This document shows positions 1,636 through 12,641 of a stretch of DNA of 45,210 nucleotides, one piece after another. This DNA is from Oculatellaceae cyanobacterium bins.114. GTDB lineage: Bacteria; Cyanobacteriota; Cyanobacteriia; Elainellales; Elainellaceae. The notes below the pieces were generated by a model. It was given only the letters and a program-made list of their open reading frames with translations, was not told the DNA's origin and did no database searches. Positions within the stretch are counted from its first letter, which is position 1, and each line of letters begins with the position of its first letter. Made by a program: the position numbers and the translations under genes. Location: positions 1 to 45,210 of the forward strand of contig JANRJA010000217.1 of the NCBI GenBank assembly GCA_033764315.1, given 5' to 3'.

Positions 1636-1760
<125 letters not shown>

Positions 1761-1779: not shown

Positions 1780-2844
1780 TCAAAGTCTGTGCCTGACGAA
1801 GGCAAGATCACTGAATATCTGTTTGCGGAGTTGCCAGGTGTCGCCGTGCTTGAGGTGTGCTGCCCAACTTTGCAGAGATTGCTGAATCTCAAGCGGTGTA
1901 ATGGTTCCTTCAGCATAGTCGTCTTGCATTGTTTTGAGACGCTTTCTAGCATATCGAAGGTTTTGATTACGGACTCGAATGTGAGTTAAAAAAACACGAA
2001 ATCCAAGAAAATTTGTGCCTATTTTAGTGGCAAATAATTGACTTTTAATCGGATGAATTTTTAGTCTCAAAGTACTGAGATAGTCTTCAACCGCGATACG
2101 AACATCTGCCAAGAATGCTCGATCGTTACTGAGAAATGCAAAGTCATCTACATAGCGAATATAAGGTTTAACCTTAAGCGTTTCTTTGACGAAATGGTCA
2201 AATCCACTGAGATAGAAGTTGGCAAAAAATTGACTGGTTAAGTTACCAATGGGCAATCCAACTCGACGTTGAACAGGTGTGAGTAAATCATCTCCGGAAA
2301 AATAGTGAATAACTGATTCTTGAGGATTGCTGGCATCAATGATGGTATCAATTAACCAAAGCGTCTTTAAACACTTAATTTTTCGTCGAATTAATGATTT
2401 TAGAATTTCGTGATCGATGCTAGGAAAGTATTTACTGATATCACATTGAAGAATGTAATCGTGATTCCGAACAAATCGAGTAAATCGCTGTAATGCGCGA
2501 TGAGAACCAAACCCTAATCGATTGGCATAGGTATTAAGAATCAAGCCCTTTTCTAAAATTGGAGCGATGATATTACAAAGCGCATGATGAACCACTCGAT
2601 CGCGATAAGGAGCGGCAGAAATCAAGCGACGCTTGGGTTTACGAATTTGAAATGTTTTATAGGAACCTGGAATATAGGTTTTGGTTTCTAGCTCTAATTG
2701 AAGTTGGATTAATTCAGCTTCCAGGTTGTGATTGAAGGCTAAGACATTATCTCGAAATCGTTTTCCTTTCTGGGCATTCCGGGCAGCTTGCAAAAGATTG
2801 GAGAAATCAATCACTTGATGCCAGAGGTTGCCATATCGTTTCAT
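1780..2844 (-). CDS. DGR reverse transcriptase
   Basis: 354 aa RT with [31 protein letters not shown] (the DGR-type SQ motif) and YVDD. No maturase or endonuclease extension. Adjacent to avd and TR. Confidence 0.97.
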
Positions 2845-3179
2845 TTTTGTTTTTGTTGTTTAATCCAACTGCCCAAGTCAGCCCCAATCAAATTAATCAG
2901 TTTGCTGATATATTCGTATCGTTGATCAGAGATTAACGAAAAGTCAAGCAAAAGTCGGGTCTGGTATCGAAGAATGGTAAGATGGGGGTTAAGAGGTTCT
3001 AAAATAATTAACCTTTCTTTGGTGTATTGAGCAACAATTAACTGGTCTAGAAAATCATACAGTTCAGAAATGATTCTGTCACCTAAATTAAATTTATGAT
3101 CTTTAGGCAAACGATTTAAGATGGGAACATACCACTTGATTAAGTCATAGGTTTTTTGAATAATAGGCAGATCATTCAT
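2841..3179 (-). CDS. avd: DGR accessory variability determinant Avd (four-helix bundle)
   Basis: 112 aa, [36 protein letters not shown]...[13 protein letters not shown] at 3179; its stop overlaps the RT start (ATGA at 2841-2844). Confidence 0.93.
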
Positions 3180-3213
3180 AACAGTTTGAGATCTCTCCAA
3201 AAAATAAAAAATT

Positions 3214-3234
3214 TGATCGCGCTCTGCGCGATCA
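3214..3234. promoter_or_regulatory. Hairpin/cruciform downstream of the VR, candidate DGR target-recognition element
   Basis: TGATCGCGC-TCT-GCGCGATCA: perfect 9-bp stem with a 3-nt loop, ~55 nt 3' of the target stop codon. Confidence 0.65.
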
Positions 3235-3289
3235 GTCAGAAGGATAATAGAATAAAACTGAAAAGAGAAACAGGAAAAGAGGGTAAAGT

Positions 3290-5419
3290 TTAAAAAGTCC
3301 TCGGAATAGAACAAACAACCCGAAAACCGAAGTTGAGGTAACGATTGTCGCGCGCGCTCCTGAGGCGATTAGCGGAGCGGCAGAACCTCGGATAGTTGAC
3401 CCACGAACCGCCGCGCAGGAGGCGATAATTTGTCTCGTCTGATTTTGGAGCCATCTTTGTCGTTTCCTCAGTCCAGGCGATCGCCCCGTTCTGCTTCAGC
3501 AAATCTGGCTTGTTGGCATAGCTGCCATACCATTGGTCAGCGCACCACTCCCAAACATTGCCGTGCATGTCGTAAAGCCCAAAGGCATTGGCAGGGAAGT
3601 TGCCAACATCGGTGGTTTGCTTTCGATATTGTCCTTTAGGTGCATTGCCATAGGTATAGTTGCCATCATAGTTCACCAGATCAAAAGTAATGGTTTCGCC
3701 AAAATGAAATGGCGTAGTCGTTCCGGCGCGACAGGCATATTCCCATTCGGCTTCTGTGGGCAGGCGATAAGGTTTATTTGTTTTACGAGAGAGGCGAGCG
3801 CAAAACTCCACGGCTTCATCCCACGATACCTGCTCGACCGGACGCTTTGCCCCTTTAAAGTTTGCTGGGTCAGAATTGAGATCTAGCTTGATCTTGGGCA
3901 ACCCTGCAACCTGCTTCCACTGAGCCTGCGTGGCGGCAAACTTACCCAGCCAAAATTCTGGCACCTTGACGCGATGCTGGGGACGTTGCGAATCTGTCCA
4001 TGTTTCTGCATCCTCCTGGCTGACTCCATGTCGGGTTGCTTCTTGGATGACGGTGTCACGCTCTATGTCTGCCGTGCCCATCAAAAACTCCCCCGCCGGA
4101 ATTTTAACCATCTCCAGCGTTACGCCATTGCCTAGATCTTCTACAAAATATTCAGCACGTTTGCGATCGCGGTTTTTCTCTTCACCTTTAGCGTTGACCG
4201 TTATCACCTCAAAATTAAAATAGGTAGCTGGGTCAGGTTGAGGAGCAGGAGGGGCGATCGGCTCAGATTGAAGGGTTTGTCCCAATACACTGGCTTCAAC
4301 TGGTGCTACATCTTCATCTCGTAATTTCAACATTTGCTGAAACCGTTTGAGATCTTCACGGGTTTCAGAGCTAAGTGTGCCTTCGTGTTCAACTGCTTCA
4401 ATACAGGCTTGCTCATATTCCCGCAAGTTGTGCTCATACTCCCGGTAGGGCTGCAACACTTCATCTTCGATCGCAGTTGCAACATCAGGCAATAAACGCA
4501 GTTCAGTTTGCCTGCGTTTAAGGATGCGGCGACCCACAATGGTGATGGCTCTATTTCTGATGTTCTTCTCGACTTCCTTGCGATACACCAGCTTAGGATC
4601 ACCCAATGATGCCTTAGCCAGCTTAATTTTATAGCCCTCCCTCACGGTGTAAATTTCTGGCTTCATAGCGGGTGCAGCTTCGTGTACTTTGCTGCGGGCA
4701 TACTCGTGCAATTCATTAACAGAAATTGCCCCATCGTTATCTTGATCAGCCGCTCCAGTCGTTAGTCCCTCTACTAAATAGCGTGTGTAAACCGACAAGG
4801 TTGCGTCTGGCTGTTCTAGTGAATATTGCGTTGCGGTGGATGATGTCAGAACGGCTCGACCTTCCTCCCCTAGTTGATTTCGGATATCGGCTGAAATATC
4901 TTCAACTGGGGCTGACTTGACGACTTCTTCCTTCCCTAATTGATTTCGGATATCGGCTGAGATATCTTCAACTGAGGCTGATTTGGCAGGCATATCTGTC
5001 GCAAATGCACCGCTGAAGCAACAATCTAAAATGACAACCTGTCGCTTGGCTCGACTGCCACTCATAAACTCGTGAATCGTGACCGCAGACACCGCTGTAG
5101 ATTTGACCAGTTCTCCTCGTGGTGTGGTGCGAGTGCGGGGGGTAGCAAAATACAGCCTACCTTGGTCATCTTTGATGCCATGCCCAGAAAAAAACAACAC
5201 CACCAGATCATCTTTGGCGCGATCGCTAAAAACCATTTCGATCGCCAACTGCATGTCTTGAGGTTCGGGATTAAGCAATTCCTGAACCCTATCAAACTTG
5301 CCAATTTGAGGATCTTCTAATGCCTGCTTTAAGGCTGCTACATCTTGTGAAGCACCCGGCAGGGCATTCAAACCTGGTTCATACTTGCTGACACCAATCA
5401 GTAATGCCACCTTTGCCAT
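3290..5419 (-). CDS. DGR target protein: N-terminal caspase-like peptidase C14 domain, helical linker, C-terminal FGE-sulfatase (C-type lectin fold) domain carrying the VR
   Basis: ALLIGVSKY, FFSGHG (catalytic His), ILDCCFSG (catalytic Cys); RLPTEAEWEYACRAG, NAFGLYDMHGNVWEW, RGGSW...GFRVV. Confidence 0.95.
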   Translation of the reverse strand: MAKVALLIGVSKYEPGLNALPGASQDVAALKQALEDPQIGKFDRVQELLNPEPQDMQLAIEMVFSDRAKDDLVVLFFSGHGIKDDQGRLYFATPRTRTTPRGELVKSTAVSAVTIHEFMSGSRAKRQVVILDCCFSGAFATDMPAKSASVEDISADIRNQLGKEEVVKSAPVEDISADIRNQLGEEGRAVLTSSTATQYSLEQPDATLSVYTRYLVEGLTTGAADQDNDGAISVNELHEYARSKVHEAAPAMKPEIYTVREGYKIKLAKASLGDPKLVYRKEVEKNIRNRAITIVGRRILKRRQTELRLLPDVATAIEDEVLQPYREYEHNLREYEQACIEAVEHEGTLSSETREDLKRFQQMLKLRDEDVAPVEASVLGQTLQSEPIAPPAPQPDPATYFNFEVITVNAKGEEKNRDRKRAEYFVEDLGNGVTLEMVKIPAGEFLMGTADIERDTVIQEATRHGVSQEDAETWTDSQRPQHRVKVPEFWLGKFAATQAQWKQVAGLPKIKLDLNSDPANFKGAKRPVEQVSWDEAVEFCARLSRKTNKPYRLPTEAEWEYACRAGTTTPFHFGETITFDLVNYDGNYTYGNAPKGQYRKQTTDVGNFPANAFGLYDMHGNVWEWCADQWYGSYANKPDLLKQNGAIAWTEETTKMAPKSDETNYRLLRGGSWVNYPRFCRSANRLRSARDNRYLNFGFRVVCSIPRTF
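3300..3424 (-). repeat. DGR variable region (VR) at the 3' end of the target gene
   Basis: Encodes RGGSWVNYPRFCRSANRLRSARDNRYLNFGFRVV; differs from TR only at TR adenines. Confidence 0.97.
4861..4985 (-). repeat. In-frame tandem duplication (66-bp period) inside the caspase domain
   Basis: 4861-4919 vs 4927-4985 has 5 mismatches in 59 bp; the protein repeats KSAxVEDISADIRNQLGxE twice. Confidence 0.9.
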
Positions 5420-5431
5420 GTGTGCGGAACC

Positions 5432-5809
5432 CTACGAATTAACAAACTCTTGAGCAGCTTTGATAGCGGCTTCTAACTCCTCACGGCTACTGGCTTCGAC
5501 AGAGAGTTTTTTGCCGTTGGCTTCGACTGATAGTTTAATCGGTTTATTGCCCAGGCGATCGCCCAAAAAGCCCATCACCTTTTTAGCATTATCAACACTC
5601 ACCTCAGCGGTTAATAATCCCACCAAAAATCCACCGAATGCCTTGTTGCCTTCTGGTGGGTTGGGGTCGAGGACGCGATCGATGGTTTCCACTTCATCCA
5701 GGTCGCGCAATTCTGCGATCAGGCGTTGAGCCTGTTCGTCTCGTTCTTCAGGTTCTAGGTCTAGGTCAGTAAAGGCGATCGTTAGTTTAATTCCAGAGCT
5801 GATAGTCAT
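5432..5809 (-). CDS. Small protein resembling EACC1 (effector-associated constant component 1), operonic with the caspase
   Basis: 125 aa with L..ELRDLDEV, PPEGNKAFGGFLVGLL (central hydrophobic segment) and C-terminal IKLSVEANGKKL. It ends 12 bp before the caspase ATG. The family was assigned from memory of this pattern and context. Confidence 0.65.
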   Translation of the reverse strand: MTISSGIKLTIAFTDLDLEPEERDEQAQRLIAELRDLDEVETIDRVLDPNPPEGNKAFGGFLVGLLTAEVSVDNAKKVMGFLGDRLGNKPIKLSVEANGKKLSVEASSREELEAAIKAAQEFVNS

Positions 5810-6182: not shown

Positions 6183-7892
6183 ATGAGTTATCGCATGGAT
6201 CGCCGTGCTTATGCTGAAACCTTTGGCCCCACCGTGGGCGATCGCGTCCGGTTAGCCGATACAGAGCTGATGATTGAAGTTGAACGCGATTACACCACCT
6301 ATGGCGACGAGGTCAAATTTGGTGGCGGCAAAGTGATCCGCGATGGCATGGGTCAATCGCCCATCAGCAATGAGCAAGGCGCGGTTGATGTGGTGATCAC
6401 CAATGCGCTGATTCTCGATTGGTGGGGCATTGTCAAAGCTGATGTGGGCATTAAAGATGGCAAGATTGCCGCCATTGGCAAAGCGGGCAACCCCTACATT
6501 CAAGACAATATTGATATCATTATTGGCCCTGGCACTGAGGCGATCGCCGGAGAAGGGATGATCCTCACGGCAGGCGGCATCGACACTCACATTCACTTCA
6601 TCTGCCCTCAGCAAATCGAAACGGCGATCGCTTCAGGCATCACCACCATGATTGGCGGTGGCACTGGCCCCGCTGCCGGAACTAACGCCACCACCTGCAC
6701 CCCCGGCCCCTGGAATATTTACCGGATGCTGCAAGCGGCAGACGACTTTCCAATGAATCTGGGCTTTTTGGGCAAGGGCAATGCCGCTCAACCCGAAGCT
6801 CTCGCCGAGCAAGTGGAAGCCGGAGTCATTGGGCTAAAGCTGCATGAAGACTGGGGCACGACTCCAGCAACCATCGATACTTGCCTCAGCGTTGCCGAAG
6901 ATTACGACATTCAAGTTGCCATTCACACCGACACGTTAAACGAAGCCGGATTTGTCGAAGATACGATCGCCGCCTTCAAAAATCGAGTCATCCACACCTA
7001 TCACACCGAAGGAGCAGGCGGCGGACACGCGCCCGACATTATCAAAGTCTGTGGTGAACTTAACGTGTTGCCCTCTTCTACCAATCCCACTCGACCTTAC
7101 ACCGTCAACACCCTAGAAGAACACCTCGATATGTTGATGGTGTGCCACCACCTCGATCGCAGCATTCCAGAAGATGTTGCCTTTGCTGAGTCTCGCATTC
7201 GCCGAGAGACGATCGCCGCTGAAGATATTCTGCATGATCTGGGAGCCTTCAGCATGATCTCATCGGACTCACAAGCGATGGGACGCATTGGTGAAGTCAT
7301 CATTCGCACCTGGCAAACCGGACACAAAATGAAAGTGCAACGGGGCGCACTCAGCCAAGATAGCGATCGCAACGATAACACCCGCGCCAAACGCTACATC
7401 GCCAAATACACCATCAATCCTGCTATCACCCACGGCATTGCAACACACGTTGGTTCTATAGAAGTCGGCAAACTGGCAGACCTCTGCTTGTGGCGACCTG
7501 CTTTCTTTGGGGTCAAACCTGAACTGGTGCTCAAAGGCGGCATGATAGCTTGGGCACAGATGGGCGACGCTAATGCCAGCATTCCCACACCTCAACCCGT
7601 CCACATGCGACCCATGTTTGCGAGCTTTGGGGGTGCCAGACATGCGACTTCTCTAACCTTCCTGTCTCAAGCCGCATTAAAACAAGATATTCCCACCAGG
7701 CTCAACTTGCGAAAACAGATCGCCACTGTCTCTCAAATTCGGCAATTGACGAAAAAGGATATGAAACTCAACGACCTGACCCCTCAAATCGAAGTCGATT
7801 CTGAAACCTATGAGGTGAGGGCAGATGGAGAACTGTTGACCTGTGAACCTGCCACTTTATTACCAATGGCACAACGCTATTTCTTGTTTTGA
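6183..7892 (+). CDS. ureC: Urease subunit alpha
   Basis: [67 protein letters not shown] upstream. Confidence 0.99.
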
Positions 7893-7931: not shown

Positions 7932-8645
7932 ATGACTCTCTCTGCTGCTAAACCCACTTCACCAACCGCAACCTCCCCAACTCAATGGCACTCTGCCACC
8001 TGGGAGGATTATGTTGCTCTGCGAGATAATCCCGATCGAGAACGAGTCAAACTAGCATTTCATCAAGGATGGTTGTGGGTTGATATGGGAGGTGAAGGCA
8101 TTAATCACTCTGGCATCAGCGACTTGTTCACTCTAATGTTAGGTTTTTGGGCAATTCAGATACCTGAAAAACCTCATACCTTATTAGGTCGTTGTCTAAT
8201 TGAAAAGCCACAAACCCAAGCGTGTGCCCCTGACCTGGTGTTATATGTGGGCGATGACTATCCCCAGTGGCAGGCAGGAGAACGACGACGTATCGATTTA
8301 ACGCGATCGCGTGTCCCTGATTTGGTGGGTGAAATCTCAGACACAACGTTAGCCAATGACCTAGATGAGCAAAAGCATCTGTATGCTGCATTAGGCATTC
8401 CAGAATATTGGGTGGTAGATGTGCAAGGACAACGGGTGTTTGCCTTTCAACTACAGGATGATCAAACCTACAAAATCTGTACCACCTCTCAAGCCCTCAT
8501 TGGGTTGCCCATCCATTTGTTAGAAGAAACCCTCAAGCGATTGAGTGAAGGCACAAACACCAGTGCTGCTGCCTGGTTTGCTCAACAAATTGCACAATTA
8601 CCAAAGGAAACAACTCCCAATACATCAGCCTCTGAGTCAGCCTGA
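7932..8645 (+). CDS. Uma2 family (DUF820) putative restriction-endonuclease-fold protein
   Basis: APDLV, PDLVGEISDTTL, K..LYAALGIPEYWVVDV. Confidence 0.92.
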   Translation: MTLSAAKPTSPTATSPTQWHSATWEDYVALRDNPDRERVKLAFHQGWLWVDMGGEGINHSGISDLFTLMLGFWAIQIPEKPHTLLGRCLIEKPQTQACAPDLVLYVGDDYPQWQAGERRRIDLTRSRVPDLVGEISDTTLANDLDEQKHLYAALGIPEYWVVDVQGQRVFAFQLQDDQTYKICTTSQALIGLPIHLLEETLKRLSEGTNTSAAAWFAQQIAQLPKETTPNTSASESA

Positions 8646-8723
8646 GTTGCCCACTCGGTCAACTATTTATCAACTATTTAAAGACTGTGGCGATCGCCCT
8701 CTCATTCCCCTCCATGCGGCTCT

Positions 8724-9062
8724 TTAACCCAGAATTGCTGTTAAGACAGTTCTCAAGGTTTGGCGATCGCCCTCCTGAAGATGTCCTAACGTCCGAATAA
8801 CTAGAGAGACCTCAAGGGTTGCCAAAATCGGTTTGACGATTGAGGGTTTCAACAAACCTGCTGACTGCCATTCCAAAATTGCCGATTCACCAAAATCAGA
8901 AGAATTCGCCAATTGACTGGTTACTGCAATCAAAATTACGTCAGCCTTTGCAGCGTGATACACTTCTGAACTGACAATAATTGCAGGCCATTTTTTGGTC
9001 GTCGCTTGATTGGTAAATGGAAAAGGAACAAGAATGACATCACCAAATCTATAATTCGTCAT
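8724..9062 (-). CDS. PemK/MazF family toxin with the conserved Arg replaced by Trp
   Basis: YRFGDVILVPFPFTN...KKWPAIIVS...AVTS...AGLLKPS; ATG at 9062 overlaps the upstream antitoxin. Confidence 0.88.
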   Translation of the reverse strand: MTNYRFGDVILVPFPFTNQATTKKWPAIIVSSEVYHAAKADVILIAVTSQLANSSDFGESAILEWQSAGLLKPSIVKPILATLEVSLVIRTLGHLQEGDRQTLRTVLTAILG

Positions 9063-9258
9063 AGTCAGCATCAAGCGGGTTATCCCAAACCTGTTGAAAG
9101 GCAGACTCAGACAGCTTGGTTGCAGCTAATGTCAACTGATAGTCTGCAATACGTTGAGCTAGAAAATCAATGAAATCTTCAACTTCAGCCAGTTTTTCAG
9201 GCGGAAGCTGACGAATTTTTTCTAGTAAGCGTTGCTCTGACACTGAGCTAATAGACAT
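9049..9258 (-). CDS. DUF2281-type putative antitoxin
   Basis: LLEKIRQLPPEKLAEVEDFIDFL...SESAFQQVWDNPLDADYDEL; overlaps the toxin start. Confidence 0.8.
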   Translation of the reverse strand: MSISSVSEQRLLEKIRQLPPEKLAEVEDFIDFLAQRIADYQLTLAATKLSESAFQQVWDNPLDADYDEL

Positions 9259-9479: not shown

Positions 9480-10094
9480 ATGGTTCAAGCGGTTCCTGAG
9501 TTAATGACGTTAGACGAGTTTCTGGATTGGTATCCAGATGGCTACGGTCGTTATGAGTTGTGGAATGGGGTGGTGATTGAAATGCAGCCAACGGGTACCC
9601 ATGAGCAGGTTGCTGGCTTTCTAGCGGGTGAACTATTTTCAGAAATTAGACGGTTGCAATTACCCTACATTATTCCGCGACAGGCGATCGTCAAACTCAC
9701 AGATACTGATAAGTCAGGCTACAACCCGGATGTCATTGTTCTCGATCAGCCAACATTAAGTGAAGAACCACTCTGGAAACAACGCTCCACCGTGACTCAG
9801 GGTAAATCAGTGCGAGTGGTGATTGAGGTGGTGAGCACCAATTGGCGAGACGATTATGGCCACAAGTTTATTGATTATGAAGCGTTGCAGATTCCGGAGT
9901 ATTGGATTGTTGATTATTTAGGATTGGGTGGAAGACGCTATATTGGTCTGCCAAAACAACCGACTCTGTCGATCTATCAATTGATTGACGGGGAATATCA
10001 GGTGCAGCAGTTTCGAGGCAGTAATCGCCTTGTGTCATCGGCGTTTCCTGAATTGAATGTCACAGCGGCTCAAGTCTTTGCGACAGGGCTATAG
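9480..10094 (+). CDS. Uma2 family putative endonuclease
   Basis: MTLDEFL, RYELWNGVVIEM, YNPDVIV, IEVVSTNWRDDY, IPEYWIVDY. Confidence 0.93.
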   Translation: MVQAVPELMTLDEFLDWYPDGYGRYELWNGVVIEMQPTGTHEQVAGFLAGELFSEIRRLQLPYIIPRQAIVKLTDTDKSGYNPDVIVLDQPTLSEEPLWKQRSTVTQGKSVRVVIEVVSTNWRDDYGHKFIDYEALQIPEYWIVDYLGLGGRRYIGLPKQPTLSIYQLIDGEYQVQQFRGSNRLVSSAFPELNVTAAQVFATGL

Positions 10095-10199
10095 CGATCG
10101 CTCTTTTTTGCTCCCTCTTCACTTTCCAATCCTCTATAGGAGAACTTTCGCTACAATTCAGATGAATCAAGTTCAGTGATCAGTTTGAGTGCCACTGAG

Positions 10200-10616
10200 A
10201 TGGTTGCAAAGGATCGGTTTCATGATGCGGTACGCACAGCCCTAGAAAAGGAAGGGTGGATAATTACCGATGACCCCCTCTCGTTCCGATTTGGAGGAGT
10301 GGATGTTCATATTGACTTAGCCGCAGAAAGGTTGATTGCCGCAGAAAGAGATGGACAAAAAATAGCCGTTGAAATCAAGAGCTTTTTAGGAGCATCTGTC
10401 ATTTCAGAATTCCATACAGCCTTGGGGCAATTTATGAATTATCGAACTGTATTGCGTCGTAAAGAACCAGAACGGGCTTTATATCTAGCAGTTCCCCAAG
10501 CCACCTATGATGACTTCTTTCAGCGACAGTTTACACAGGCTGTTATTGAAGATTATCAGCTTAGCTTTGTGGTATATGACGTTGAAAATGAGGTGATTAC
10601 TCAATGGCATCCTTAG
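10200..10616 (+). CDS. xisH: XisH family protein (fdxN element excision controlling factor family)
   Basis: AKDRFHDAVRTALEKEGWIITDDP, DLAAERLIAAER, IAVEIKSF, FHTALGQF, LYLAVP. Confidence 0.93.
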   Translation: MVAKDRFHDAVRTALEKEGWIITDDPLSFRFGGVDVHIDLAAERLIAAERDGQKIAVEIKSFLGASVISEFHTALGQFMNYRTVLRRKEPERALYLAVPQATYDDFFQRQFTQAVIEDYQLSFVVYDVENEVITQWHP

Positions 10617-10939
10617 AAAACTATCGTGCTTATATTAAGCAATTACTAACAGAATATAGTCAGTATCCCTATCGTTATGGGGAAGTCGAGTCACAAACAA
10701 TTTTTGATACAGAACATGATCATTACCAACTTGTGCGGGTGGGTTGGGAAAAGAACCAACGGATTTATGGTTGTGTTCTCCATTTAGATATTAAGGATGG
10801 AAAAATTTGGATTCAATGGAACTCTTCAGATATTGATATTGGTAAGGAATTAATGGCATTAGGCGTTCTCAAACAAGACATTGTGATTGGGTTTCAACCG
10901 GAGTATCTACGCCAGTATTCAGACTACGCTGTTGGCTAG
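10604..10939 (+). CDS. xisI: XisI family protein
   Basis: FDTEHDHYQL, GW...RIYGCVLHLDIKDGKIWIQ, DIVIGF; overlaps xisH. Confidence 0.93.
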   Translation: MASLENYRAYIKQLLTEYSQYPYRYGEVESQTIFDTEHDHYQLVRVGWEKNQRIYGCVLHLDIKDGKIWIQWNSSDIDIGKELMALGVLKQDIVIGFQPEYLRQYSDYAVG

Positions 10940-11139: not shown

Positions 11140-11633
11140 ATGAAGCCTCTCTCTCATCGACTCTGGTTGTCTTGCATTGCAGTCGTTACAACTTCAGGCG
11201 TGATTATTACAAGTCCTGTATTTTCTTCCCAACCATCTGAAGGAGCGATCGCCTCTCCACAACTGGCACAAGTGTCAGAGCAATCAACCTCGGCTCCAGC
11301 CATATAACCCTCCACCATTACAGGCAGACTGGATGAAAACAGTAATATCCTAGAGAGCGATCGCAGTTATTACACACATACATTTGAAGGAGTTGCAGGA
11401 CAGGCGATCGCAATTGAGATGAACAGTAATGAGTTTGACACTTACCTAATTCTGCTTGATCCAAATGGTCTTTTGAGCAAGCATTGGTGATTTATCGGGA
11501 AGTAGGTGATCGCAATCGGGAAGCTAGCGCACTAACTCTTCTGGGCATTGTTTACGGTTCCTTGAGTCAATACTCAGAGGCGATCGCTTACTATCAGCAG
11601 GCATTACCCATCCTTCAAGAAACGGGCGATCGC
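11140..11633 (+). pseudogene. Remnant of a secreted PPC-domain + TPR protein gene
   Basis: From ATG 11140: signal-like N-terminus, premature TAA at 11305-11307, then ITGRLDENS...YTHTFEGVAGQAIAIEMNSNEFDTYLILLDPNG (PPC-like). A frame change near 11470 leads into TPR EQALVIYREVGDR...EAIAYYQQALPILQETGDR, which ends at HIP1 11626-11633. Confidence 0.8.
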
Positions 11634-11663
11634 GTCTTCAACACACTATTAAGATCTGTGGTG

Positions 11664-11879
11664 CTAAGCTGCCTCATTGTCGTCATATGTATTGCAAATA
11701 GTATCACCGTCGTCATAGTAGGGATCGACTAAAGTCTCTAGGTCTTGAATCTTCTCCTCTAAGTCTTGTTCTCGGTTCTCTGAAGCTTGTTTCTCGTTTT
11801 TCAAAACTTCCTTCAAAGCTTTCGTGCATTGCTCTATAGCCTCCGCAAGCTCTTCTGACGAATATTCGTAAAAATCCAT
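11664..11879 (-). CDS. Small acidic coiled-coil hypothetical protein (71 aa)
   Basis: MDFYEYSSEELAEAIEQ...; divergent from the gene at 12030. Confidence 0.5.
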   Translation of the reverse strand: MDFYEYSSEELAEAIEQCTKALKEVLKNEKQASENREQDLEEKIQDLETLVDPYYDDGDTICNTYDDNEAA

Positions 11880-12029
11880 AATTGGGTAAGTTAATAAACA
11901 ATGAAACAATATTCGTATTTTAATACAAGTCAAAAGTTTGTCAATAAATTTCGTCAGTAGTCCTATTTCTAACTATTGAAGCTGAAAATGAGGCTTGCTA
12001 TACTGAGTCGTAGATAAATACAAAAAGCT

Positions 12030-12641
12030 ATGAATAGCGAGTTAGATCGGCGCAAGCACAAAATATACACTGAATCTGAGCAAGCAGGACTTCGGCAAGT
12101 GGCTGAGATTTTGAAACAAACTCGGCTTTCTCAAGAAGGAAAAATTGGCACTCGCAAAAGAAGCAGTGTTCGTGGATTTATTGAGTTATTAGAAGAAAAA
12201 ACAGGAGAACGCTTCAACATTAGTGATATTCAGCGATATGAAGCCGCCGGAGAACCTGATAAACGGTATGGCTTTATCAATGCCGTTCATCCAACCTATT
12301 TAGAGTGTGTTGCACCCCTCACGAGTTATACCGTTGAAGAGTTAAAGGAGATGATGAAAGGGAATCTGACGCAGCGATCGCCCTCGCCTTCTCAAGATGT
12401 ATTGCGAATAAATACTCAAAATACTCAAGCTGTCATGCTTGATTTGTCTCCATCCTTGATGCATTTCATCGAGAAGCATAAAGCCATGTACAACTATCAA
12501 TCGATGTCTCAAGTGATTGAAACTGCGCTTGAAGAGTGGCGCGATCGCGAACTTGAAAAAGCTTATCGAGAAGCATCGGCAGAAGTAGATGGCGACTGGG
12601 ATGTGGTTGTTGCGGATGGATTGACCGATGAAGCGTGGTGA
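12030..12641 (+). CDS. Fusion of an N-terminal HTH-like domain with a C-terminal ribbon-helix-helix antitoxin
   Basis: C-terminal LDLSPSLMHFIE...SQVIETALEEWRDRELEKAYREASAEVDGDWDVVVADGL is typical of cyanobacterial RHH antitoxins and overlaps mazF. Extended -10 TGcTATACT at 11996-12004. Confidence 0.7.
   Translation: MNSELDRRKHKIYTESEQAGLRQVAEILKQTRLSQEGKIGTRKRSSVRGFIELLEEKTGERFNISDIQRYEAAGEPDKRYGFINAVHPTYLECVAPLTSYTVEELKEMMKGNLTQRSPSPSQDVLRINTQNTQAVMLDLSPSLMHFIEKHKAMYNYQSMSQVIETALEEWRDRELEKAYREASAEVDGDWDVVVADGLTDEAW

Follow-up and report, generated by a model that had tools for sequence, protein, structure and literature searches.

Layout of the cassette

We analyzed a minus-strand cassette (5809-1636) in a 45,210-nt stretch of contig JANRJA010000217.1 from the Oculatellaceae cyanobacterium bins.114 assembly; the whole of this stretch is called the window. 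The cassette is compact and encodes, in order, the small protein P0002, a homologue of the EACC1 family as judged by its relatives and predicted fold; P0001, in which a caspase is fused to a C-type-lectin (CLec)-fold FGE-sulfatase domain; and the accessory protein Avd and reverse transcriptase (RT) of a diversity-generating retroelement (DGR). It ends in the template repeat (TR) of that element, whose variable repeat (VR) lies within the P0001 gene. The stop codon of P0002 (TAG) ends at 5432 and the ATG of P0001 is at 5419, so that 12 nt separate the two genes, as a preliminary description of this DNA had stated. That description took the P0002-P0001 pair for a sensor-protease system of cell death or conflict. 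The sections below concern the identity of the two proteins, how widely they are linked, and the variability of the lectin domain.

P0002 as a divergent EACC1 protein

P0002 belongs to a large and very conserved family, with 1452 clusters found at E ≤ 1e-3. Identity to P0002 is 72-81% among the best 120, most of which are 124-125 aa long, and all named relatives among the matches listed are cyanobacterial and labelled "hypothetical". A profile built from 30 close P0002 homologues (A2) and run against 1.84 billion representatives retrieved 396 proteins at E ≤ 1e-3, of which 233 reached E ≤ 1e-10. The Pfam EACC1 model (PF19953) was matched at E ≤ 1 by 30 of the 93 full-length members (P0002 included), the next family by 5 of the 93; in single scans, 13 of 51 family members matched EACC1 at E ≤ 0.01. 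Five proteins score above the PF19953 gathering score of 23.6 bits (P0225, 25.2; P0228, 26.4; P0234, 23.8; P0241, 24.6; P0254, 23.9) and cover model positions ~4-106 of 107; their matches to the A2 profile had E values of 1e-18 to 1e-21. P0002 itself fails that gathering score, which we read as failing an operational threshold and not as failing homology. No EACC1 model surfaced in NCBIfam scans. A search with P0254, meant to gather independent EACC1 proteins that carry that name, recovered nothing but the query itself, which is a Myxococcales record.

Predicted structure is consistent with the profile matches. The AlphaFold model of P0002 has a mean predicted local distance difference test (pLDDT) score of 83.9 and consists of a strand (residues 6-13), a helix (20-36), a strand (40-47) and a loop (48-60), followed by a strand (61-71), a helix (72-86), two strands (91-97 and 100-106) and a final helix (109-124). 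Confidence in the loop (nt 5630-5668), which contains Asp48 and Lys56 (codon 5642-5644), is lowest at residues 55-58. Residues 57-71, AFGGFLVGLLTAEVS, form a Gly-rich hydrophobic segment that holds Gly59, Gly60 and Gly64. Among the 30 close homologues D48-P-N-P, Lys56, Gly59, Gly60 and Gly64 are invariant, and Gly64 is kept in 88 of 93 relatives. Model and alignment together show the trait that marks EACC1, a central small-residue or Gly-patch hydrophobic segment flanked by beta-alpha-beta and alpha-beta-beta-alpha elements. The model agrees with PMC7159879, where the family is described as alpha+beta with a hydrophobic, Gly-rich segment at its centre, and with the account in the available text of the Evans et al. 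preprint (10.1101/2025.11.14.688446), where C-terminal strands form a sheet that the N-terminal piece completes.

An atlas based on a language model and on structure returned EACC1-bearing clusters for P0002 (feature score 0.91; template-modelling (TM) scores 0.73/0.72 over 115 residues). Searched against the PDB, the P0002 model had no match at E ≤ 1e-3 and aligned to generic ferredoxin-like folds with TM < 0.5. Judging by sequence relatives and modelled fold, P0002 is a divergent cyanobacterial EACC1 branch missed by the curated cut-off, and its link to the family is transitive and structural. The label "EACC1-like" in the preliminary description, an interpretation and not an observation, thus stands through relatives, atlas and fold, and lacks a direct Pfam match.

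EACC1-like domains are also found fused to longer proteins, N- or C-terminally (P0129, P0139, P0147, P0172, P0197, P0233 and P0264; locus L019, 8001-9848). An atlas cluster of 508-aa GUN4 proteins shares the EACC1-like fold (TM 0.76 by query).

P0001 as an EACC1-associated caspase

The caspase domain of P0001 passes the NCBIfam model for "caspase, EACC1-associated type" (NF047832) with 167 bits against a cut-off of 140 over residues 4-247, a comparison that had been proposed as a check. His80 in the SGHG motif and Cys134 in the DCC motif are both present, and neither they nor Asp132 vary across 70 aligned homologous caspase domains; the catalytic dyad is intact, as had been claimed. Among the non-self matches listed for P0001, 118 of 119 carry Peptidase_C14 together with FGE-sulfatase, and at least 40 of the 119 are already named "caspase, EACC1-associated type" by NCBI or UniRef. 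The model (pLDDT 84.9) has a caspase-hemoglobinase fold. Of the structures already solved, the MALT1 paracaspase and the metacaspases come closest to it, both by profile (E 1.6e-4 to 8e-4) and by fold (E ~5e-11). MALT1 and metacaspases cleave after Arg or Lys. We take the D-C-C motif of P0001 to correspond to the Asp of the metacaspase S1 pocket.

Two further features of the caspase region were noted. An EF-hand-like loop is conserved in all 70 aligned caspase domains and modelled with high confidence, and Pfam EF-hand models match it below threshold; the pattern suggests calcium control. The linker that follows the catalytic Cys carries a tandem repeat and is disordered (pLDDT < 50 at residues 145-156 and 162-173). 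The 22-aa duplication is specific to the window, relatives having a single copy. At its start lies Lys146, which is near-invariant and may be a site of auto-processing.

Linkage of the two genes across genomes

In the species-representative genomes of GTDB, a relative of P0002 is encoded in 213 stretches; locus counts here cover the best 80 of the 213. The linkage with caspases that the preliminary description had anticipated is conserved. By tblastn, a homologue of the P0001 caspase domain lies directly downstream in 75 of the 80 loci, and Peptidase_C14 is present in every one of the 69 downstream proteins that are 250 aa or longer. Where the downstream frame is at least 100 aa, the gap from stop to start is at most 26 nt in 65 of 73 loci, most commonly ~10 nt. 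Of the five loci that lack an adjoining caspase, one (L001) meets a contig end, three (L006, L012 and L046) hold orphans and one (L019) has the EACC1-like domain fused to a longer frame; the orphan gene of L006 faces a gene for a 1681-aa NTPase-like protein. Chance neighbourhood of P0002 and the caspase is ruled out by this linkage, the short gaps and the constant presence of Peptidase_C14.

What follows the caspase varies. The 69 downstream proteins carry 11 different second families at their C-termini: FGE-sulfatase in 11, ANF-receptor/periplasmic-binding domains in 7, EAL in 5, TPR in 4, HSP70 in 2, and WD40, GUN4, RDD, ribosomal L12-C, Pilin_GH and Clp_N once each. No second family was found in 34 of the 69, some of which end at contig ends. 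The middle region of P0001 is kept after the caspase domain in most related loci, regardless of the C-terminal domain. On a FastTree tree of caspase domains the FGE label changes at least 7 times, an approximate count in that some rows are incomplete at contig ends. At the level of sequence, the linked pairs show precisely the syntax of constant component and variable domain that defines the EACC1 system. Pairwise distances of P0002-type proteins and of their caspases correlate over the 69 loci (r = 0.52, with none of 999 permutations as high), a correlation that can arise from common descent alone.

Three loci have tandem EACC1-caspase pairs or an extra caspase gene nearby (L068, 5878-6978 and 8001-9092; L075, 5774-6874 and 8001-9090; L053, 11182-11880).

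A diversified lectin domain

TR and VR align without gaps over 125 nt. They differ at 12 positions, every one an adenine in TR (12 of 28 adenines), and at none of the 97 non-adenine positions; immediately outside the block they diverge at non-adenine positions also. Identity at non-adenine positions, together with divergence just outside, points to recent homing. The 21-nt core shared by the repeats occurs exactly twice in the window, in TR and in VR (0 expected in shuffles), and no remote VR copy was found there. VR contains 16 codons with an adenine whose mutation changes the residue, 11 of them AAY, which allow ~10^15.7 protein variants and no stop codon.

The genes that would drive this variation are present. 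Avd matches NF033474 with 127.4 bits against a cut-off of 80, and the start of its gene is likely Met46 of the listed frame, at 3179, because the match begins only at residue 49. The RT frame is intact, and its translation shows IGNLTSQ and YVDD, presumably signatures of DGR-type RTs. The window therefore holds an RT, an Avd, a TR/VR pair that differs at TR adenines only, and a CLec-fold target with VR in its 3' end, the set of features by which DGRs are recognized, and the fusion of the caspase to a DGR-diversified lectin domain is as first described. We also considered whether the FGE domain might be a working formylglycine enzyme gene with no relation to the DGR, and rejected this because VR occupies its 3' end.

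Two related loci with FGE-type pairs, L002 and L032, also carry a TR, with 20 of 22 and 11 of 17 TR/VR mismatches at adenines, in that order. L002 has a truncated avd and, in place of RT, an IS200/RAYT-like gene (8507-9091, minus strand); L032 has lost RT and has a transposase gene nearby (11242-12180, minus strand). Both look like DGR decay by mobile elements. A tblastn search of the related loci for RT and avd at E ≤ 1e-5 found fragments in L002 only.

Features and genomic setting

The features of the cassette are collected in Table 1. The hairpin between VR and avd may serve as a terminator or as the stem-loop by which a DGR recognizes its target, and the divergence of TR and VR right after their shared block may mark an IMH-type VR end. 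In the cassette scan, terminator-like sites were no commoner than in shuffles, an Rfam scan gave no match inside the cassette, and a tRNA search found none.

Table 1. Features of the cassette and their positions in the window.
Feature	Position	Strand	Basis or comment
P0002 gene, 125 aa	5432-5809	-	divergent cyanobacterial EACC1 homologue; predicted latent pore-forming effector
P0001 gene, 709 aa, caspase/FGE-lectin fusion	3290-5419	-	open reading frame (ORF) and Pfam
Peptidase_C14 domain, P0001 residues 1-260	4640-5419	-	Pfam match to residues 3-255, E 1.9e-21
His80 (SGHG)	5180-5182	-	catalytic dyad
Cys134 (DCC)	5018-5020	-	catalytic dyad
Tandem repeat, two 66-nt (22-aa) copies, 92% identical	4861-4985	-	P0001 residues ~145-187, linker just after the catalytic Cys
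EF-hand-like loop, residues 225-236, D225-x-D-x-D229-G-x-I-x-x-x-E236	4712-4747	-	within helix-loop-helix 210-248
P0001 middle region, residues 261-430	4130-4639	-	no Pfam family
FGE-sulfatase/C-type-lectin-fold domain, P0001 residues 436-702	3314-4114	-	Pfam E 2.4e-51; predicted ligand sensor
VR, residues 666-707 of 709	3300-3424	-	last 125 nt before the final codons of the P0001 gene
Hairpin, GC-rich, 9-bp stem, 3-nt loop	3214-3234	-	between VR end and avd, 66 nt downstream of VR
avd, DGR accessory protein	2841-3179 (listed ORF 2841-3314)	-	NCBIfam NF033474, residues 49-152
DGR RT, 354 aa, intact ORF	1780-2844	-	Pfam RVT_1; overlaps avd stop
TR, 125 nt	1636-1760	-	begins 19 nt past RT stop

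The cassette sits between the genes for urease beta (753-1157) and urease alpha (6183-7892), both on the opposite, plus strand. The minus-strand segment 1254-5942 resembles an island inserted between urease genes that usually belong together, and related loci have other neighbourhoods. Just beyond TR are two 78-nt direct repeats (1254-1331 and 1354-1431), 85% identical and 100 nt apart. Inverted-repeat character is seen inside each of them, and they may represent terminators or a small repeat element. Within the urease alpha gene an antisense Rfam match to 5_ureB_sRNA (149.8 bits, 6338-6624, minus strand) probably reflects conserved urease coding sequence and not a cyanobacterial sRNA. Beyond ureC (plus strand) lie two genes for Uma2-family putative endonucleases and a XisH gene (7932-8645, 9480-10094 and 10176-10616), with a likely XisI frame beside the last (10604-10939).

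A proposed mechanism

From the gene sequences, and by analogy with a studied homologue, we consider it on balance probable that the cassette encodes an EACC1-caspase death or defence module with a DGR-diversified C-type-lectin (FGE) sensor, in which a ligand would activate the caspase, the caspase would cut EACC1, and EACC1 would then form a pore. In the resting state the caspase-lectin protein would be off, and EACC1 would be present as an auto-inhibited alpha+beta monomer in solution. The trigger would be a ligand, for which a protein or glycan of phage origin is the most plausible candidate; on docking at the variable lectin surface it would switch on the N-terminal caspase, probably by drawing several copies into contact, and the conserved EF-hand-like loop may make this step responsive to calcium as well. 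The caspase would cleave EACC1 in its flexible loop 48-60, after Lys56 or near Asp48. The freed C-terminal fragment, starting at the Gly-rich hydrophobic segment, would oligomerize into membrane pores, and cell death would abort the infection. Avd and RT would meanwhile copy TR into VR with errors at adenines, and different cells or filaments would come to bear different trigger specificities.

We favour Lys56 as the P1 residue because Lys or Arg occupies that position in 84 of 93 relatives, as against Asp48 kept in just 48 of 93, and because of the Arg/Lys specificity of the nearest proteases. Asp48 is analogous to the putative site Asp49 given for the studied homologue in the available text of Evans et al. 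(2025; 10.1101/2025.11.14.688446). According to that text, EACC1 is cleaved by the caspase of its partner KrAvs12, toxicity resides in the C-terminal fragment alone, and liposomes leak when exposed to the cleaved protein. The steps from cleavage to pore would follow this Ktedonobacter EACC1-KrAvs12 pair, their sole experimental basis. By the same analogy, the earlier idea that the small protein is a substrate or adaptor may be sharpened to a substrate that is the death effector.

More tentative, and in our estimate doubtful, is a fuller proposal: that the cassette is a self-contained, 4.2-kb, somatically diversifying receptor-executioner, in which the DGR would rewrite up to 16 codons (~10^15.7 variants) of the lectin surface on which the trigger acts, the protease would be calcium-gated by way of its EF-hand-like loop and specific for Lys/Arg, and the EACC1 pore would be licensed by cleavage after Lys56, with a filamentous population holding a repertoire of abortive-infection receptors.

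Weighing the interpretation

Several observations weigh against reading the cassette as a DGR-diversified EACC1-caspase module. P0002 finds no match in Pfam, NCBIfam or PADLOC even at E ≤ 10, and the comparison of its sequence with EACC1 models, proposed earlier as a check, accordingly came back empty; its membership is argued through a chain of relatives because there is no direct model match. Among the 80 related loci, 3 hold orphan EACC1 genes (L006, L012 and L046) and one a fusion (L019). Intact DGRs are rare beside such pairs: among FGE-type loci, a TR lies within the flank in 2 of 11 such loci (L002 and L032), neither with a usable RT, and the other nine have no TR within the flank, two of them limited by contig ends. 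Because RT is lost from L002 and L032 and the other nine have no TR in the flank, the window holds the only complete cassette among 81 loci; the co-occurrence of EACC1, caspase and FGE with avd, RT and TR that the preliminary description had proposed to survey is complete in the window alone among these loci. The cleavage site, Lys56 or Asp48, is uncertain, and the idea of a basic P1 residue leans on general knowledge of protease specificities and on the D-C-C motif. The partner of the studied EACC1 had an Avs ATPase sensor, not a lectin, according to the preprint text (10.1101/2025.11.14.688446). Lastly, it is the spacing of the genes that argues for co-transcription, because a promoter scan of the cassette found nothing above chance.

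Other explanations were considered as well. In the model put forward by Kaur et al. (2020; PMC7159879), EACC1 would be a membrane-inserted sensor whose Gly-patch helix perceives a membrane signal and turns the caspase on, and auto-proteolysis would then free the lectin as an effector that neutralizes the invader. The hydrophobic Gly-rich segment of P0002 would suit such a role, and the long disordered linker after the catalytic Cys, with Lys146, could provide the auto-processing site. In our model of P0002, however, that segment forms a beta-strand buried inside a globular fold and not a transmembrane helix, and the EACC1 described in the preprint text is a soluble monomer cut by its caspase, with a toxic, membrane-active C-terminal fragment (10.1101/2025.11.14.688446). 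We consider a membrane sensor distinctly improbable here. It is unlikely, too, that the cassette serves not against phage but to tune endogenous signalling or developmental death (kin or self recognition, stress death, filament differentiation), the DGR adjusting recognition of host or community ligands. Cyanobacterial DGR targets, orthocaspase fusions included, are read as regulatory in the relevant part of PMC7517822; the caspases of sister loci bear HSP70, EAL, GUN4 and periplasmic-binding domains that suggest inputs other than phage; and stress sensing is raised for DnaK fusions in the preprint (10.1101/2025.11.14.688446). Yet the sole EACC1 pair studied experimentally in that preprint answers to a phage protein, passages of PMC10907252 place DGR-linked lectin sensors in predicted conflict systems, and hypervariation is easier to reconcile with an external target that changes fast than with a self ligand that stays the same.

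The reading as a diversifying module further presumes a working DGR. If the element were now inactive and VR frozen from past retrohoming, the protein would be a sensor of fixed specificity. Both related loci that bear a TR have lost RT, to an IS200/RAYT-like gene in one and with a transposase in the other, and the remaining nine FGE-type loci have no TR in the flank, all of which would fit such decay. In the window, by contrast, avd and RT are full-length open frames, YVDD is present, and 97 of 97 non-adenine TR/VR positions are identical with diverged flanks, as expected of recent homing, and inactivity is accordingly very improbable. Hardly credible is the notion that an unrelated small protein, P0002, simply happens to sit upstream of the caspase and has no functional tie to it. 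The lack of a direct curated-model match and the three orphan copies speak for it; linkage in 75 of 80 loci at gaps of ~10 nt already contradicts it, the chain of relatives to Pfam EACC1 holds, and distances correlate across the 69 loci (r = 0.52), though shared ancestry could suffice for the last. Taken together, the preliminary interpretation is upheld in EACC1 homology, linkage to a caspase, the EACC1-associated type of that caspase and a lectin that is a DGR target, and is given up in its claim of an undescribed system, as set out below.

If the proposed mechanism is true, the cassette would be among the smallest complete units in which a sensor under programmed hypermutation directly controls a protease-licensed pore. 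Four genes would then be enough to test the proposal that DGR targets serve as antigen sensors (PMC10907252, 2024), by asking whether a change in VR changes the trigger. If the receptor-executioner proposal is also true, the cassette would be comparable, in bacteria, to an anticipatory immune receptor coupled directly to cell death. There is also a gap in annotation: this EACC1 branch (1452 clusters; 213 confirmed loci in species-representative genomes) lies below the Pfam cut-off and is called "hypothetical", while its partner caspase is already named. A broader EACC1 model would close this gap in cyanobacteria.

Comparison with known systems

The components of the cassette and their combination are in print (PMC7159879, PMC7517822, PMC10907252 and 10.1101/2025.11.14.688446, as far as the available text of each goes). 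Each element appeared between 2020 and 2025, and the cassette is a clean new example of a kind of system already described. Set against those texts, what may be new is the EACC1 branch missed by curated models, the conserved Lys/Arg56 in its loop and the EF-hand-like loop in the caspase; "EF-hand", "calcium" and "Ca2+" occur 0 times in PMC7159879 and in the text of the Evans et al. preprint (10.1101/2025.11.14.688446).

The EACC1-caspase pair with variable C-terminal domains was defined by Kaur, Burroughs, Iyer and Aravind (2020; PMC7159879; Pfam PF19953). The small protein there has the same Gly-rich hydrophobic core, and the hosts are likewise colonial or filamentous bacteria. As described in that article, the system is widespread among actinobacteria and sporadic in proteobacteria, whereas here we see a cyanobacterial branch below the Pfam cut-off. 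Neither FGE nor a DGR is among the C-terminal domains given in section 33 of PMC7159879.

The available text of Evans et al. (2025; 10.1101/2025.11.14.688446) mentions, in a single sentence and one panel of a figure, that EACC1-protease modules are also met together with DGRs. Its EACC1-KrAvs12 system of Ktedonobacter racemifer shares with the cassette the order of EACC1 upstream of a caspase-sensor fusion, and cleavage of EACC1 there yields a small N-terminal piece that is inhibitory and a C-terminal one that is toxic and forms pores. The two differ in their sensors, a DGR-variable lectin here and an Avs STAND ATPase there, the DGR-linked form being known from genes alone; the conserved loop residue here is Lys/Arg56, whereas their putative site is Asp49.

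From the DGR side, orthocaspase N-termini on cyanobacterial DGR variable proteins were reported by Vallota-Eastman et al. (2020; PMC7517822), and DGR targets were proposed as antigen sensors, without a test, by Dore et al. (2024; PMC10907252). As presented in these texts, the proteins share with P0001 a C-terminal CLec/FGE domain with VR at the 3' end and a caspase-like peptidase, along with avd, RT and an adenine-mutagenized TR. An upstream small gene or EACC1 is without mention in the relevant passages of both, and the term "EACC" occurs 0 times in the text of PMC10907252.

In the analogy drawn in the preprint text (10.1101/2025.11.14.688446), gasdermin-protease pairs have the same protease-licensed pore former with an inhibitory fragment. 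EACC1 is nonetheless not a gasdermin: it has ~125 aa and a ferredoxin-like alpha+beta fold with no solved relative in the PDB at E ≤ 1e-3. The protease of the pair, for its part, has a caspase fold that stands nearest to MALT1 and the metacaspases.

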